The notes under the pieces are model-generated. The model saw only the letters and a list, made by a program, of their open reading frames with translations, was not told the DNA's origin and did no database searches. The translations under genes were made by a program, and so were the position numbers. Positions 8,588 through 24,467 of a stretch of 64,000 nucleotides of DNA are shown here, one piece after another. Origin of the DNA: Candidatus Shapirobacteria bacterium (GTDB lineage Bacteria > Patescibacteriota > Microgenomatia > UBA12405); NCBI GenBank assembly GCA_041659325.1, contig JBAZYN010000001.1, positions 131,428 through 195,427 on the forward strand, in the 5' to 3' direction. Position 1 is the first letter of the stretch, and each line of letters begins with the position of its first letter.

Positions 8588-9229
8588 ATGGGTCAAAAAG
8601 TAAATCCTATCGGTTTTAGGCTAGAAACAACCAAGAATAGTCCTGAATGGCAATCTTCCTGGTATGCCGATAAGAAAAAATATTCGGCACTTTTAATTCA
8701 GGACAAGGTCATTCGTGATTATCTTCAGAAAAAGTTATATTCAGCCGGTGTCGTTGCTCTAAAAATAGAACGCTCAACCAAAAGACTGAAATTAGTTATT
8801 ATCGTTAGCCGTCCCGGCTTAGTAATCGGTCGTGGCGGTAAAGAATTAGAAGCGATAAAAAAGGATATCCTTAAGCTGTTGCCAAAAACCAGCGGTAAGC
8901 AAAATGTCGAGATTCAGGTCGAAGAATTTAAACACAGTGATTTGTCAGCTAAGCTGATTGGCGAAAAAATTGCCTATCAGTTAACCAAAAGATTACCCTA
9001 CCGACGGGCCGTATTATCAGCCATGGAAAAATCAATTCAAGCCGGCGCAAAAGGTATCAAAGTTATTTTGTCCGGTCGTATAAACGGTGCCGAAATTAGC
9101 CGTCGGGAAAAATTTTCCCAGGGGAAAGTTCCCCTAAGTACAATCCGCGCCAACATTGATTATGCAGAATGTCCCTCATTAACCAGATCGGGTTATATCG
9201 GTGTAAAAGTTTATTTGTGTTTATTTTAA
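8588..9229 (+). CDS. rpsC: 30S ribosomal protein S3
   Basis: 213 aa. KH domain, [13 protein letters not shown]-terminus and GRINGAEI motif. Confidence 0.95.
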
Positions 9230-21230: not shown

Positions 21231-22346
21231 ATGAAGCAAAAATTACATATTCCAAACATTCAAAACACCGTTATTACCCCGGCTTTAGTTAAAAATCGGA
21301 ATTGCGAAAACCTTATCGGCTCAACCCAGGTTCCACTTGGCCTTGCGGGGCCACTTTTGATTACTTTTCAAGACAATATTACCGATACTTACATGTTACC
21401 GCTCTCAACTACAGAAGGGGCCCTGGTCGCTTCCGTAAATCGTGGTTGCAAAGCAGTCGGCCTGTCTGGGGGTGTAAGGACATATTTTGAAGACGTTGGC
21501 GCCACCCGTGGCCCTCTGTTCCGGGTTAAAAACCTGGCTGAAGCTGCCAATTTAGTCAAATATGTTAGTGATAATCTAAACGATATCGCTCTGGTTGCCC
21601 AAAAAAACACTCCGTTTATAAAATTTCAAAAAGAAGAGCATCAAGTTATCGGCAAGAACGTCTTTTTTCGTTTTTATTTCAACACCTCTGAGGCTATGGG
21701 TATGAACATGGTCACCCAGGCAACAGAAAAAATTTCCCGATATCTGGAATCAGCGCTCAATATAAAATGTTTGGCCCTATCCGGAAATTTTTGTCAGGAC
21801 AAAAAACCATCCTTCACTGGTTTTTTATTGGGCCGGGGAAAAAAAGTTTGGGCTGAGGCCATAATTAAAAAATCATCGGTAACAGATATCCTAAAAACAA
21901 CTCCGAAAGATATTGTCGAAATTGTTCAAAAAAAGTCCCATCTTGGTTCAATTGTTTCCGGGTCTCTTGGATACAATGCTCATTTTGCCAACATCCTTGC
22001 CGCCATCTTTTTAGCTACCGGTCAGGATATCGCCCATGTTGTCGAGGGTTCTATGGGCATCACCGATGCCGAAATAGAAGACAACGGAGATCTCTATTTT
22101 TCAGTTTACCTTCCCGACATAATGGTGGGTACTGTCGGTGGGGGAACAGGCCTACCAACTCAAAAAGAAGCCTTGGGGATTTTGGGGTTAGACAGACACG
22201 AATCTGGTGATTCACTTAAACTTGCTCAAATAATCGCTGCCGGTGTATTGGCAGGCGAACTATCCCTAACCGCCGCCATCGCCGCCGGCCATCTGGCCAA
22301 GGCACACGAAAAACTTGGGAGAGGTATCAAAACACAAAAAATTTAA
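21231..22346 (+). CDS. hmgA: hydroxymethylglutaryl-CoA reductase, class I catalytic domain
   Basis: 371 aa. EAMGMNMV (the DAMGMN motif), GTVGGGTGL and the cis-loop region are present. It lacks the eukaryotic membrane domain. Confidence 0.85.
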   Translation: MKQKLHIPNIQNTVITPALVKNRNCENLIGSTQVPLGLAGPLLITFQDNITDTYMLPLSTTEGALVASVNRGCKAVGLSGGVRTYFEDVGATRGPLFRVKNLAEAANLVKYVSDNLNDIALVAQKNTPFIKFQKEEHQVIGKNVFFRFYFNTSEAMGMNMVTQATEKISRYLESALNIKCLALSGNFCQDKKPSFTGFLLGRGKKVWAEAIIKKSSVTDILKTTPKDIVEIVQKKSHLGSIVSGSLGYNAHFANILAAIFLATGQDIAHVVEGSMGITDAEIEDNGDLYFSVYLPDIMVGTVGGGTGLPTQKEALGILGLDRHESGDSLKLAQIIAAGVLAGELSLTAAIAAGHLAKAHEKLGRGIKTQKI

Positions 22347-22633
22347 CGACTCCGCCTCCTGTTCGTGCTGGCAGGGAACTCAGATGAGCCTTTTGCAATT
22401 GCATTTCCAATTCCTCCAAGTGTTCTATCTAATTTCTTTTCTTGTTCTTCGTTAAAATTGGCCTTACCCTCTTGTGTTTTTCTAAAGATCTCGTCTGGAG
22501 TAGTAACCTTGCCTTTTCCACCGCCACCCCATGCCACAACCCCCTCGGAGGGATTTAAATCTTGTTTAATATCAACTTCAAGCGGTTTTCTGTCTGAATG
22601 ATCCAAACCTCCCGATGATATTTCAAAAGCCAT
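22343..22633 (-). CDS. hypothetical Gly/Lys-rich small protein
   Basis: The ORF-track start at 22660 is a GTG. The first ATG gives MAFEISSGGLDHSDRKP...WGGGGKGKVTTPDE...GGIGNAIAKGS. That is loosely like KGG-repeat stress proteins. It is convergent with hmgA (4-nt overlap). Weak call. Confidence 0.3.
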   Translation of the reverse strand: MAFEISSGGLDHSDRKPLEVDIKQDLNPSEGVVAWGGGGKGKVTTPDEIFRKTQEGKANFNEEQEKKLDRTLGGIGNAIAKGSSEFPASTNRRRSR

Positions 22634-22844
22634 ATTTTTTCTATGTAGAATATATAACACTAACAGTATAACACTGCATGGTAATTTGCTACAAGTTTAT
22701 ATTTCGAATAACAATAAACCGTAACAAACCAAATCAAATTCAGGAAATAGTATAGAACTCTTAGGAGCTGTAGGCAATCACTTTGTCTTGCCTAGATCAG
22801 CTAGGCTTTATGCTCGTTCGAGAACCCGAAACACTTATGTTTTT

Positions 22845-22867
22845 GTCGGGGTTACTGGATTCGAACC
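22845..22867. repeat. 23-bp direct repeat = duplicated 3' end (T-arm + acceptor) of tRNA-Pro; att-like site
   Basis: GTCGGGGTTACTGGATTCGAACC is identical to 23146-23168 (the 3' end of the tRNA at 23147-23220). The upstream sequence does not fold into a cloverleaf. Confidence 0.7.
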
Positions 22868-23143
22868 TCAGCCAAAGGCTGATCCGCCTTTGGCGGAAGC
22901 AACAGATATGATTATGTTTCTAACATTCCTCCCAAATCCTGACTTATAAAACTTTTCCCGTAAGGCAGCATCTTCTTTGCACAAATATTTTTCAAAATAC
23001 AAAAGGATAAACGGCATATTTTCCTTTGTAAATTTATTCATCCTTCGATTATGTTCTTCAAGCCTTGTCTTCGGATCTTGACTGGTGCTACCAACATAAA
23101 TCTTACCGTTCCTTTGGCTCTTTAGAAAGTAAACATAGAACAT
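22868..23143 (-). CDS. GIY-YIG nuclease family protein (UPF0213/YhbQ-like)
   Basis: 91 aa. MFYVYFLKSQRNGKIYVGSTSQDPKTRLEEHN is a textbook GIY-YIG motif. The ORF exactly fills the space between the two 23-bp direct repeats. Confidence 0.8.
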   Translation of the reverse strand: MFYVYFLKSQRNGKIYVGSTSQDPKTRLEEHNRRMNKFTKENMPFILLYFEKYLCKEDAALREKFYKSGFGRNVRNIIISVASAKGGSAFG

Positions 23144-23146
23144 CGG

Positions 23147-23220
23147 TCGGGGTTACTGGATTCGAACCAGCAACCTCACGGACCCCATCCGTGCGCGCTA
23201 GCCAATTGCGCCAAACCCCG
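23147..23220 (-). tRNA. tRNA-Pro (anticodon GGG)
   Basis: Manual fold of the minus strand: acceptor CGGGGTT/AACCCCG, D-arm GCGC-AATTGGCTA-GCGC, anticodon arm CACGG-AT GGG GT-CCGTG, variable AGGTT, T-arm GCTGG-TTCGAAT-CCAGT, discriminator A. 74 nt. Confidence 0.85.
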
Positions 23221-23360
23221 AAGTACCAAGTATTCTACCATTTTATCCATCTATTTCCGACAACGAAAACAATAAGTATTCGTCTTTTCTTCGGTTTTCC
23301 TTATTGACTTGATATAGTCGGTGTTGGTATCTTCATATCGGTTAAACATTTTTAAAAAAT

Positions 23361-24467
23361 ATGGGACGACATCCAAAAATAGACAAAGCCAAACCAGTCA
23401 ATAGTAGTTCTTCACTTCAGGGCAAGAAATTTGAAGCCGTAAGGCTCGCCATGGAACAAATCACCAAGGCCTATGGTGATGGTGCCATCATGAAAATGGG
23501 AGAAAACAACGCCGATATGAAAATAGAAGTTATTCCCACCGGCTGTCTCCCGTTGGACATTGCTCTGGGTGTTGGCGGTTTACCCCGCGGCCGGATTACC
23601 GAAATTTATGGACCGGAAGCATCCGGAAAAACCACTGTCTGTTTACATGTCATTGCCGAGGCCCAAAAGCTTGGAGGCACTGCCGCTTTTATCGATGCCG
23701 AGCATGCTCTGGAGCCGACACGAGCCGCCACCATCGGCGTAGATTTAAATAATCTTTTAATCTCTCAACCCGACAATGGTGAACAAGCTCTGGAAATTGT
23801 CGAAACCCTAGTCAGGTCCAACGCTGTCGATGTTATTGTCGTCGACTCAGTTGCCGCTTTAGTCCCCAAAGCCGAAATCGAGGGTGAAATGGGTGACTCC
23901 ATGATGGGGCTTCAAGCCCGGCTTATGTCCCAAGCCCTCAGAAAGCTTACCGGCGCCATCTCTAAATCCAAAACTGTAGTCATCTTTACCAATCAGCTTC
24001 GCCAAAAAATCGGCGTAATGTTTGGTAATCCTGAAACCACCACCGGTGGTTTAGCCTTAAAATTTTACGCTTCTGTCAGAATCGATGTTCGAAAAACCGC
24101 CAATGTGAAAACCCCCTCCGGAGAGTCCATTGGCTCTCAGCACCGCGCCAGAATTGTTAAAAACAAGATTGCTCCACCGTTTAAAGAAGCCGAGTTCGAC
24201 ATTATGAACACAGAGGGAATTTCTGTATATGGTGGTCTTGTCGATTTGGCCGTTCAATACGGATTAATCACTAAATCAGGTGCCTTTTTCAAAGTCGGTG
24301 ATCAAAATATCCAAGGTAGGGAAGGGGCAAAACGGTATCTCAAAACCAATCCGACTTTAGCCCAAGACCTAAAAGAAAAAATCTGGGCTATTATCAAAAA
24401 TCCACCGGACGAATCTTTGTCAAAAAAACCTCTTTCCGAAGATGAGTCGGGCGATTCGGGTGAATAA
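23361..24467 (+). CDS. recA: recombinase RecA
   Basis: 368 aa. GPEASGKTT Walker A, the L1/L2 loops and IDAEHALEP are present. Confidence 0.97.

Follow-up and report, generated by a model that had tools for sequence, protein, structure and literature searches.

We studied a small open reading frame (ORF) of the GIY-YIG superfamily that lies beside a tRNA-Pro(GGG) gene of a Candidatus Shapirobacteria bacterium, and found it to be one of a family of 0.3-kb units in which such an ORF adjoins a tRNA gene and a partial copy of that local tRNA, the copy being interrupted by a double hairpin at one exact position. We document here the anatomy of these units, their linkage to tRNA genes, their presence/absence polymorphism, the covariation of their hairpin stems and the purifying selection on their ORF. 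Such units are very probably selfish mobile elements specific for tRNA genes, and they are best read, by analogy, as the bacterial tRNA-gene counterpart of the mORFs of fungal mitochondria. To the whole statement, i.e., a minimal selfish element on tRNA genes that spreads by a homing mechanism, we incline with caution. No published description of the element was found in the literature searched, and judged from that literature this design of a GIY-YIG ORF with a hairpin-split tRNA-gene copy would be undescribed so far across CPR bacteria.

The tRNA-Pro(GGG) locus and its duplicated end

The whole stretch of DNA analysed, called here the window, comprised 64,000 nucleotides (64 kb). The features of the element, in window coordinates, were the following:
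23145-23220, minus strand: intact, functional tRNA-Pro(GGG) gene (ARAGORN; Rfam; 100% identical to the tRNA of empty sites L097 and L111)
23146-23174, minus strand: tRNA segment copied downstream, linear positions 47-75 (GTTGCT plus the 23-mer; arm mapping)
22868-23143, minus strand: 91-aa stand-alone GIY-YIG ORF of UPF0213 / bacterial Slx1-like type (PF01541)
22898-22903, minus strand: 'stub', next to the hairpin on its ORF side, repeating 6 nt of the tRNA (positions 47-52, GTTGCT)
22868-22897, no strand assigned: 30-nt double hairpin, TCAGCCAAAGGCTGA followed by TCCGCCTTTGGCGGA on the plus strand; single copy in the window
22845-22867, minus strand: displaced tRNA 3' fragment (positions 53-75), outside any cloverleaf

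The tRNA-Pro(GGG) gene was the only tRNA that ARAGORN called in the 64 kb, and Rfam agreed (RF00005, 59.5 bits, 23147-23220). A 23-mer, GTCGGGGTTACTGGATTCGAACC, occurred at 22845-22867 and at 23146-23168, with no third copy in the window even when 3 mismatches were allowed; the chance expectation for 23-mer matches was 0 (100 shuffles of the window). The proximal copy is the 3' end of the genuine tRNA: it runs from the final 2 nt of the T-stem 5' strand through the T loop and the 3' strands of T stem and acceptor to the discriminator A and a single C. The duplication is longer than 23 nt, since six more tRNA bases, GTTGCT (minus strand), were present at 22898-22903 as in the tRNA copy at 23169-23174. 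Both copies of the segment were identical at 29 of 29 bases, with 0 mismatches (a left arm of 6 nt up to position 52 and a right arm of 23 nt from position 53). Exactly 30 nt (22868-22897) separated the GTTGCT piece from the distal 23-mer; the distal copy therefore corresponds to tRNA positions 47-52, a 30-nt insert and positions 53-75. The GTTGCT stub was common to loci L108 and L122, and the stubs of L005 and L006 were mapped as well.

Neither ARAGORN nor Rfam found a second cloverleaf at the distal copy, and a permissive Rfam scan (E up to 10) of positions 22300-23700 gave no introns, ribozymes or tRNA-like elements beyond the tRNA. An earlier sequence-only reading of this DNA had reported the pair of 23-mers, the genuine tRNA at one of them, the 91-aa ORF between them with its start 2 nt from one repeat and its stop touching the other, a distal copy without upstream cloverleaf and the lack of an integrase, and all of these withstood our analysis. 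Its phrase 'precisely bracketed by 23-bp direct repeats' was only partly right: both 23-mers are real, and the 6-nt continuation and the double hairpin were overlooked, which leaves the description incomplete. The observation itself is confirmed, and a chance repeat is a most improbable source of the 23-mer pair.

The element is neighboured by genes for HMG-CoA reductase, a 105-aa ORF of no known type, recA, recX and RNase Y. No recombinase gene was present near it or among the called genes of loci L001-L003. In the gap from tRNA to ORF a promoter/terminator scan found neither signal, and it likewise left the tRNA's own promoter uncalled.

A stand-alone GIY-YIG ORF and a double hairpin

The ORF, co-oriented with tRNA-Pro(GGG), matched PF01541 with E=1.9e-14 (54.2 bits, the cut-off being 22.6). 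Its ATG (23141-23143) follows the end of the tRNA gene at a distance of 2 nt, and its TGA (22868-22870) directly adjoins the distal repeat; the final 12 codons come from the tRNA stub and the hairpin, the latter providing the stop codon. Among 18 relatives the catalytic-type residues Y5, Y16, R27 and E63 were invariant and H31 was at least 90% conserved, in a spacing that parallels their SLX1 counterparts Y17, Y29, R39, H43 and E82 (PMC8287910). Comparisons between the window ORF and its relatives gave dN/dS values of at most 0.08 at saturated dS; the ORF is under strong purifying selection. The GIY-YIG domain (residues 1-72) occupies the protein, with no separate DNA-binding domain such as those of I-TevI or the Seg proteins. 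A total of 10,569 cluster representatives matched at E up to 1e-3, and nearly all of the best 150 of these were 65-140 aa long, a few longer ones reaching 655 aa. Sequence matches in the PDB were limited to 1ywl (E=2.5e-6) and 1zg2 (E=1.1e-5). By these comparisons the protein is a predicted nuclease of the stand-alone Slx1-like/UPF0213 branch of the GIY-YIG superfamily. An exact-protein contig look-up returned no exact copy of it, and IMG/VR held no relatives in viral contigs, which argues against a viral origin. A group I intron endonuclease was also rejected: the TIGR01453 score was 25.3 bits against a cut-off of 56, Rfam detected no intron RNA, the tRNA is uninterrupted, and the group I introns of Patescibacteria tRNAs described in a published paper represent a different insertion.

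Read on the minus strand, the 30 nt at 22868-22897 form two neighbouring 6-bp hairpins, TCCGCCAAAGGCGGA followed by TCAGCCTTTGGCTGA, which interrupt the displaced tRNA copy precisely after position 52; no further copies were found in the 64-kb window. Across the family 97.6% of the stem cells paired and 8 of the 12 pairs showed double-sided changes, giving a covariation score of 0.402 versus 0.094 in shuffles (0 of 500 shuffles reached 0.402). The consensus, TCNNCC-ANA-GGNNGA followed by TCNNCC-TNT-GGNNGA, is identical when read on either strand. Because the loops of the window's own copy are AAA and TTT, its thermodynamic fold favours one long hairpin; as a family structure, a single 15-bp palindrome was rejected, with 28-34 of the 63 sequences unpaired at columns 3/28, 8/23 and 13/18.

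In 55 of 71 hairpins both flanks were contiguous on the adjoining tRNA (position p, then p+1), nothing being duplicated or lost. The break points fell in or beside cloverleaf loops and junctions (17/18, 12-14, 8/9, 35/36, 52/53 and 56-59, a slash marking a break between two positions), and on its truncated side the tRNA copy invariably stopped at a distance of 5-15 nt from the hairpin. Of the hairpins in 790 kb, 77 had a GIY ORF within 200 nt and 7 did not, six of the latter lying inside tRNA fragments; so few solo copies do not fit a dispersed MITE. Two other roles were also discarded: a Shine-Dalgarno sequence built from the hairpin end and G18G19 (GAGG), its distance to the ATG varying from 6 to 32 nt, and a D stem re-formed around the hairpin, impossible at the 12/13 sites with their too short stubs. 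We conclude that selection maintains the double hairpin as a structural component of the element, one which marks the break point; it may serve as a binding or cleavage site of the nuclease or as a disruptor of the target in the fragment.

Occurrence and mobility of related loci

In 76 of 80 genome loci with relatives of the ORF, nearly all from CPR bacteria, the ORF abutted a tRNA gene on the same strand; the remaining four were cut by contig ends or had visible tRNA fragments. The ORF was always oriented as the tRNA. At least 12 isoacceptors were used: Pro(GGG/CGG/TGG), Val(CAC/GAC/TAC), Ala(GGC/TGC), Asp, Lys, His and Ser, and also Ile, Met and Cys. About 70 related loci combined the ORF at its host gene with a duplication of one end of this gene, and in most relatives the duplicated part was the tRNA 5' end or began in the D loop. 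This 0.3-kb architecture was repeated in more than 80 independent assemblies from many studies. Loci L040 and L026 were tandem arrays, and L019, L073, L076 and L077 carried pseudogenised copies. In L014 the full tRNA copy and the fragment differed by a compensatory T-stem change (GTGGG/CCCAC versus GCCGG/CCGGC), and divergent copies were also present in L010, L036 and L081. Within the window clade the fragment bore the acceptor variant of its own tRNA in each lineage (AACCCCG, ATCCCCG or ATTCCCG) despite saturated synonymous divergence, which implies ongoing recombination between the two copies.

The comparison covered 60 loci from metagenomes that carry this same tRNA-Pro(GGG). The sequence-only reading had proposed a search for empty sites in relatives, and they were abundant: about 45 loci lacked ORF, hairpin and repeat, 7 were occupied and about 10 were scars without ORF. 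Two of the empty sites, L097 and L111, had a tRNA 100% identical to that of the window. No relative was close enough to have the downstream flank of the window in common; the empty site is thus established for the same gene and synteny, not for the allele. Occupied, empty and scarred loci were intermixed on the RecA tree (trees here are neighbour-joining trees of short or moderately diverged proteins). The same tRNA-Pro(GGG) had been invaded at 52/53 (window clade), 8/9 (L096 and L124) and 17/18 (L093), and adjacent ORFs on the protein tree belonged to different tRNAs. The window clade itself retained the element at one recA-tRNA-Pro locus. An association between occupancy and the T-stem allele (GCTGG versus GCAGG) was seen, and it was set aside since it is confounded by phylogeny. 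Mobility is well supported by these sequence comparisons.

Proposed mechanism, known systems and alternatives

Relative to an empty site, in which the tRNA is followed by the flank, the extra DNA measures about 301 bp and can be described as replacement tRNA positions 53-75, the dinucleotide cg, the ORF, the stub (47-52) and the hairpin, placed in the T arm. The predicted empty junction would read …CCCCGAC followed by AAAAACATAAG. As the inserted unit brings replacement positions 53-75, the tRNA remains complete and its second 3' end comes to lie downstream as a dead remnant. The nuclease would be made from the tRNA transcript; there is no space for a promoter or Shine-Dalgarno sequence of its own, and it would probably be translated from a near-leaderless mRNA after tRNA 3' processing. 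It would then break tRNA-gene DNA, and an element-bearing copy would be the template for repair of the break, the putative homology arms being the tRNA and the displaced fragment.

The closest known parallel is given by the mitochondrial mORFs of Allomyces macrogynus atp6 and Glomus atp6, atp9, cox2 and nad3, and endonuclease-driven mORF mobility was reported in Allomyces (PMC3630166). Both kinds of element combine a free-standing endonuclease ORF (GIY-YIG in the mORF of atp9) with a replacement copy of the host gene 3' end, displace the other copy of the gene end downstream as a fragment, leave the host gene functional and are patchy among relatives. Inserted and displaced copies are sometimes divergent in both, here in L014, L010, L036 and L081 (either copy may be the native one), whereas those of the window are identical. 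The elements studied here differ from mORFs in that the target is a bacterial chromosomal tRNA gene instead of a protein-coding gene of mitochondria, the duplicated part of the gene can be 3' or 5' within the family, the nuclease is a bare Slx1-like domain of ~80 aa, and a 30-nt double hairpin splits the displaced fragment.

Phage T4 SegB is a free-standing GIY-YIG homing endonuclease in a phage tRNA gene cluster (PMC2330249). Like SegB and I-TevI/I-BmoI, the element would have GIY-YIG catalytic chemistry (here predicted), be selfish and spread by break-induced gene conversion (here by the mechanism proposed above), and with SegB it would share a tRNA gene region as the site of action. Those enzymes differ in having C-terminal DNA-binding domains, long asymmetric sites and no duplication of the target gene, and the family studied here, unlike phage GIY-YIG homing enzymes, has no viral-contig relatives. 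Slx1-like stand-alone proteins represent the GIY-YIG variant in its minimal form, which lacks auxiliary domains (PMC1564403). The UPF0213 proteins (E. coli YhbQ, B. subtilis YazA; PDB 1ywl and 1zg2) are of the same sequence family and size; they are described as putative repair nucleases, unlike the mobile-element role proposed here, and the literature searched describes no link of UPF0213 to tRNA genes, hairpins or mobility. In REP/RAYT and IS200/IS605 systems a nuclease gene is flanked by hairpins on which the nuclease acts; the enzyme is there an HUH/Y1 transposase and not a GIY-YIG protein, and the hairpin studied here lies inside a tRNA-gene fragment. A short GC-rich double hairpin as an inserted unit is common to these systems, to our element and to the mitochondrial double-hairpin elements/RHEs, which behave as inserted units (PMC2800124). 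The hairpin differs from dispersed hairpin elements in occurring once in 64 kb, and in 77 of 84 cases within 200 nt of a GIY ORF.

Several observations weigh against homing. A catalytic domain of ~80 aa without DNA-binding domain is unlike the characterised GIY-YIG homing enzymes and could hardly recognise a long asymmetric site. The intact tRNA equals the fragment and no feature marks the occupied allele, so that immunity of the kind 'insertion destroys the target' is inapplicable to the intact tRNA. Homing also needs neither the hairpin nor the 5-15-nt stub and does not explain their constant presence. An alternative that we consider rather unlikely is a structure-specific mechanism: the Slx1-like nuclease, as a symmetric dimer, would act on its own double hairpin and/or on single-stranded loops of tRNA genes, not on tRNA sequence, and would nick a few nt outside the hairpin on either side, the staggered cuts leading to insertion and duplication as in a transposon rather than a homing ORF. 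The protein does belong to the structure-specific Slx1/UPF0213 branch; the hairpin consensus is two-fold symmetric with stems held by compensatory changes; insertion points lie at or near cloverleaf loops and junctions; and the truncated copy keeps its 5-15-nt distance. In the composite loci L010, L030 and L072 a block of tRNA and ORF lies between direct repeats of stub-hairpin-stub, distant ORF clades retain double hairpins whose sequence differs, and L036 has one hairpin in frame within a protein-coding gene. The same mechanism is at odds with the confinement of the hairpins (77 of 84 adjoin an ORF), with the lack of any full-length tRNA interrupted by a hairpin among the related loci, with stub lengths too variable for a fixed cleavage distance, with an ORF restricted to the strand of the tRNA where a symmetric site would permit either orientation, and with L075 and L060, tied to tRNA without a recognisable hairpin. 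Its bolder form, a new class of bacterial mobile DNA in which a GIY-YIG/hairpin 'transposon' makes staggered nicks around the hairpin and uses the single-stranded loops of heavily transcribed tRNA genes, is slightly more doubtful still; if true, the mechanism would differ from that of homing endonucleases, of integrases and of HUH transposases, and would also replace tRNA alleles horizontally.

It is quite improbable that the ORF is a domesticated or host-beneficial module, i.e., a housekeeping YhbQ-type repair enzyme co-transcribed with tRNAs by chance, the tRNA copies being by-products of replication slippage or serving the host, e.g., by offering tRNA-integrating phages a decoy attachment site. 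Integrases typically use the tRNA-gene region equal to the displaced fragment, which agrees with a decoy, as do the strong purifying selection and the retention of the window clade at its recA-tRNA-Pro locus with a housekeeping role. Patchy presence with many empty sites and ORF-less scars, pseudogenised copies, tandem arrays and jumps among at least 12 tRNAs are not expected of such a module, and housekeeping genes do not carry an exactly interrupted copy of whichever tRNA is next to them.

The sequence-only reading had offered a minimal tRNA-targeting mobile cassette or, instead, the remnant of an integrative element with a duplicated att site. The first is borne out by the empty sites, the interspersed states on the RecA tree and the at least 12 isoacceptors, the local tRNA being partially copied each time. 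Direct repetition of a tRNA 3' end classically points to integrase-mediated integration, and tRNA-targeting tyrosine-integrase islands and prophages do insert at a tRNA gene, regenerate it and leave a partial-tRNA direct repeat. A decayed island or prophage of this kind, reduced to attL/attR and one cargo gene, is nevertheless very improbable here, given that there is no recombinase nearby and no kb-scale cargo (only 278 bp lie between the repeats), the identical 0.3-kb unit recurs in more than 80 assemblies, most relatives duplicate the tRNA 5' end or a part beginning in the D loop, break points in the D loop are common, a conserved hairpin interrupts the repeat at the break point, and viral contigs hold no relatives. 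Repeats can mislead assemblers, and the chance of a fortuitous repeat or an assembly artefact is still negligible with 0 matches expected and the same architecture in many independent assemblies and studies.

A homing-type element, the reading we prefer, would extend the targets of such mobile ORFs to bacterial chromosomal tRNA genes, and would show how a gene that is essential and present once in a minimal genome can carry a parasite and still survive. It accounts for the recurrent tRNA-gene fragments of CPR genomes and for their mis-called, N-terminally extended 'GIY-YIG nuclease family proteins', and it suggests a route to horizontal replacement of tRNA alleles. For the UPF0213/YhbQ family of unknown function, with its 10,569 clusters, it provides a testable substrate hypothesis, namely tRNA-gene DNA or the 30-nt double hairpin, and a nuclease of ~80 aa with a defined structured target could have practical interest.

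The tRNA-Pro(GGG) locus of the window

Two copies of the 23-mer GTCGGGGTTACTGGATTCGAACC, at 22845-22867 and 23146-23168, are the only ones in the window, also when up to 3 mismatches are allowed (chance expectation 0). The proximal copy belongs to the only tRNA gene detected by ARAGORN in the 64 kb, tRNA-Pro(GGG) at 23145-23220 of the minus strand (Rfam, 59.5 bits); it runs from the final two 5'-strand bases of the T stem through the T loop, the 3' strands of T stem and acceptor stem and the discriminator base to one C. Neither ARAGORN nor Rfam detected a cloverleaf around the distal copy. Between the repeats lies a single ORF, whose ATG is 2 nt from the tRNA end and whose TGA abuts the distal repeat; it matched PF01541 (GIY-YIG) with E=1.9e-14 and 54.2 bits (cut-off 22.6). 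The two repeats, the tRNA gene and the placement of the GIY-YIG ORF had been proposed in the sequence-only reading and were all recovered, as was the absence of an integrase, i.e., no recombinase was found among the neighbouring genes. The description of the ORF as precisely bracketed by the 23-bp repeats held for the geometry of repeats and ORF but overlooked a 6-nt continuation, GTTGCT, and a 30-nt double hairpin (HP).

Features between the repeats
22868-23143, minus strand: GIY-YIG ORF of 91 aa
22898-22903, minus strand: stub GTTGCT, the bases ahead of GGTTCG in the intact tRNA
22868-22897: HP, a pair of adjacent hairpins, each with a 6-bp stem and a 3-nt loop

On the minus strand the ORF ends with …TCT GTT GCT, followed by TCC GCC AAA GGC GGA and TCA GCC TTT GGC TGA and then by GGTTCGAATCCAGTAACCCCGAC. 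Because the stub is tRNA sequence, the duplicated segment corresponds to tRNA positions 47-75 (linear numbering), and this displaced copy is broken exactly between positions 52 and 53 (break 52/53; GCT/GG in the T-stem 5' strand) by the 30 nt. The HP, present once in the window, codes for the ORF tail SAKGGSAFG and the stop codon.

The predicted protein falls by sequence in the stand-alone bacterial Slx1-like/UPF0213 group, with 1ywl and 1zg2 as the only PDB matches, and no DNA-binding domain was found in it. Residues Y5, Y16, R27, H31 and E63 are conserved and parallel the catalytic residues of SLX1 (PMC8287910). A full-library profile search returned 10,569 cluster representatives at E<=1e-3 (1,940 at E<=1e-10), and nearly all of the best 150 of the 10,569 were 65-140 aa long.

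Other features were noted close by. An HMG-CoA reductase gene adjoins the element in this CPR (Shapirobacteria) genome (21231-22346, plus strand; PF00368, E=2.4e-112), and directly downstream of the displaced fragment is a 105-aa ORF (22343-22660, minus strand) with a Gly-rich stretch, WGGGGKGK, no Pfam match and a promoter-like site at 22777-22749. The hairpin filter also caught GGGAAAAATTTTCCCAGGGGAAAGTTCCCC at 9105-9134, two adjacent palindromes unrelated in sequence to the HP.

tRNA linkage and the double hairpin across the family

Public data assign the window ORF to a Candidatus Shapirobacteria genome (CPR/Patescibacteria), and the contigs of three homologues showed the same design. Two of them (L001 and L002) are syntenic with the window, with recA-recX-rny on one side followed by tRNA-Pro(GGG), the ORF and the tRNA-end repeat; in the third, L003, the element is on tRNA-Pro(CGG) and the repeat, 57 nt long, begins in the D loop. 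A scan limited to one genome per species gave 80 loci, nearly all from CPR lineages (one was from an Omnitrophota and one from an Ignavibacteria genome), and in 76 of them ARAGORN placed a same-strand tRNA gene abutting the ORF; the remaining four were cut by contig ends or had tRNA fragments. The host tRNAs were Pro(GGG/CGG/TGG), Val(CAC/GAC/TAC), Ala(GGC/TGC), Asp, Ile, Lys, His, Ser, Met and Cys. Viral contigs yielded no relatives.

Two layouts were distinguished. In type A (about a quarter of the loci, the window included) the intact tRNA is followed by the ORF, a 5-11-nt stub, the HP and that tRNA's 3' part, complete to the 3' end; in type B (about three quarters) the tRNA 5' part from position 1 is followed by the HP, a 5-15-nt stub, the ORF and the intact tRNA. 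In the ORF tree the window and loci L004, L005 and L006 form a monophyletic clade with tRNA-Pro(GGG), break 52/53 and type A, and outside it neighbours differ in tRNA and layout. Many of the called family proteins are extended at the N-terminus by about 15-55 aa: the extensions of the two proteins checked (P0002 and P0005) are read from the adjacent tRNA gene, others probably from the 5' fragment or hairpin, and some 200-aa "proteins" with two matches are probably readthrough of tandem arrays.

In 55 of 71 hairpins both HP flanks were contiguous on the neighbouring intact tRNA, the left arm ending at a position p and the right one starting at p+1; therefore the HP insert causes neither duplication nor loss.

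Break points of the displaced tRNA copy (positions; number; location)
17/18 or 18/19; 33; D loop, just before GG
12/13 or 13/14; 13; D-stem/loop border
8/9; 3; acceptor-D connector
35/36; 1; anticodon loop
52/53; 3; window clade, T stem, two bases from the loop
56/57 and 58/59; 2; T loop

For a covariation test, hairpins were picked by the invariant CC…GG anchors alone and the pairing of the outer stem was then checked. Column 3/13 held A-T in 24, G-C in 17 and C-G in 16 hairpins and was unpaired in 3 of 63; over the whole structure 97.6% of the cells pair, with two-sided changes in 8 of 12 pairs. The score was 0.402 as compared with 0.094 when shuffled (none of 500 reached the observed value) and at most 0.053 in slid controls. 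A single long 15-bp palindrome was rejected, as the variable columns fail to pair. The consensus, TCNNCC-ANA-GGNNGA followed by TCNNCC-TNT-GGNNGA, reads identically on both strands, and more distant ORF clades keep the double hairpin with a different sequence, e.g., CCCC-AAA-GGGG followed by CCCC-TTCG-GGGG in L078 and L082.

Dispersal of the HP as a repeat was rejected: in 790 kb of fetched sequence, a GIY ORF was within 200 nt of 77 copies but not of the other 7, of which six lay in ORF-less tRNA fragments and one in frame within a protein gene. The latter, the sole copy outside a tRNA context (L036, 1509-1538), adds SARGGSAFGG near the N-terminus of a membrane-protein-like ORF.

Empty, occupied and scarred loci

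An exact tRNA-Pro(GGG) pattern, with degenerate codes at seven positions for the relatives' variants, retrieved 60 loci from metagenomes. About 45 of them had no ORF, hairpin or repeat; in two (L097 and L111) the tRNA is 100% identical to that of the window, and seven (L086, L099, L105, L132, L104, L117 and L123) match the window in their divergent recA-tRNA synteny. No relative was close enough to share the window's downstream flank, so the empty site, which had been suggested as a check, is shown for the same gene and synteny and not as a strain allele. Seven loci were occupied, among them L108, L122 and L092 with the window layout at 52/53, and L093 (17/18), L096 and L124 (both 8/9) with the other layout. 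About 10 were scars, i.e., ORF-less remnants (L084, L102, L116, L134, L139, L143, L100, L119 and L140). A neighbour-joining tree of RecA mixes occupied with scarred and empty lineages, as in occupied L015 beside empty L097 or scarred L102 beside occupied L001/L004. Pseudogene copies (L019, L073, L076 and L077) and tandem arrays (L040 and L026) were also present in the family. Together with the ORF tree and the lack of viral relatives and of a recombinase near the window element, the polymorphism, pseudogenes and arrays typify a selfish element going through invasion, decay and loss.

In the window (23145-24467) and in L086, L099 and L105, tRNA-Pro(GGG) and recA diverge, whereas in L097, L111, L124, L015 and L087 the tRNA gene precedes recA in the same direction; the tRNA module has therefore undergone a local inversion in evolution. 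Further remnants were observed. After tRNA-Pro(GGG), L100 (12443-12566, tandemly doubled), L119 (76-139) and L140 (433-490) carry an ORF-less unit, …ggatgagaagcaaggt…ccctttagggt plus the last 17 nt of the tRNA, apparently another type of scar or element at this gene. Fragments of tRNA-Pro(GGG) in L116 (7547-7633), L134 (984-1040), L143 (2844-2913) and L139 (6557-6608) contain other, unrelated small hairpin inserts at 13/14, 15/16 and the T loop. In L004 (2726-2810), L005 (2803-2850) and L139 (6609-6649) the displaced fragment is followed by further short units, each with a hairpin ahead of it and …CCCGAC at its end; they are possibly older scars of the acceptor 3' strand.

In the window-clade ORFs dS was saturated (>1.6 or not computable) and dN/dS was <=0.08; the window, L005, L006 and L108 nevertheless agree at all eight synonymous positions of the HP, variation being confined to the middle base of loop 2. 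Fragment and own tRNA share an acceptor variant in each lineage (AACCCCG in the window, ATCCCCG in L004/L108/L122, ATTCCCG in L005/L006), and long arms are mostly perfect (e.g., 57/57, 58/58 and 60/60). A neutral fragment would not track its own tRNA, and thus either the copies keep exchanging sequence or the element is often re-inserted; these comparisons indicate that parts of the element are under selection or concerted evolution. In L014 intact tRNA and fragment differ by a compensatory T-stem change (GTGGG/CCCAC versus GCCGG/CCGGC), both copies being from functional alleles, and the fragments in L036 and L081 are divergent too. Outside its block of tRNA-Val and ORF, L010 has the halves of a different tRNA-Val(CAC), each joined to the block via the same unusual hairpin variant; L030 and L072 share this composite form (5' fragment-HP-stub-{tRNA, ORF}-stub-HP-3' fragment).

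A probable mobile ORF of tRNA genes

We regard the anatomy, the tRNA-gene linkage, the polymorphism and the selection on parts as established; the mechanism is proposed from them. The ORF has no room for a promoter or ribosome-binding site of its own; in the window clade, L010 and L016/L017 just 0-3 nt separate its start from the tRNA. It would therefore probably share the tRNA's transcript, with 3' processing of the tRNA generating the 5' end of the translated mRNA. In type B the tRNA's upstream region precedes the ORF and the tRNA follows it, the ORF often reading into the tRNA. The predicted nuclease would break tRNA-gene DNA, and recombinational repair would copy the element, with intact tRNA and displaced fragment as homology arms. 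This full homing statement we hold at slightly better than even chances. It leaves unexplained the nearly universal HP and short stub, neither of which it needs, and has two weak points: nothing tells the intact tRNA at an occupied locus apart from an empty target, and the enzyme lacks a DNA-binding domain.

In the main rival reading a structure-specific nuclease, with the symmetric HP itself or loops in single-stranded tRNA-gene DNA as its substrate, nicks a few bases outside the hairpin. This would account for the preference of break points for loops, the stubs, the composite loci with their flanking stub-HP-stub repeats and the inverted copy in L031, where 5' tRNA fragment and hairpin (1844-1890) recur inverted downstream of the ORF (2375-2421), an inverted duplication centred on the palindromic hairpin. 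We consider this rival rather unlikely. Against it speak the lack of hairpin dispersal, the variable length of the stubs and the failure to find a full-length tRNA interrupted by a hairpin. Intron endonucleases, integrase islands (no recombinase lies near the window element) and dispersed hairpin repeats (HP copies cluster by GIY ORFs) were each dismissed on their defining tests.

The structural and population tests agree with a mobile ORF. In fungal mitochondrial mORFs, a core gene is followed by an inserted gene end, an endonuclease ORF and the displaced native end, and endonuclease-driven mobility has been reported (PMC3630166). The element has the same logic of duplication and probably of replacement, but departs from mORFs in its target, a tRNA gene, its minimal nuclease and its obligatory hairpin. 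It has chemistry and tRNA-region context in common with free-standing phage GIY-YIG enzymes such as T4 SegB, and a regenerated tRNA plus repeat with integrase islands; hairpin repeat elements (DHE/RHE, REP/RAYT) are also among the closest systems. A full-text literature search found no published description of it. The minimal tRNA-targeting cassette first suspected from the sequence is backed by the family-wide tRNA linkage and the empty, occupied and scarred loci, and is very probably a selfish mobile element specific for tRNA genes.
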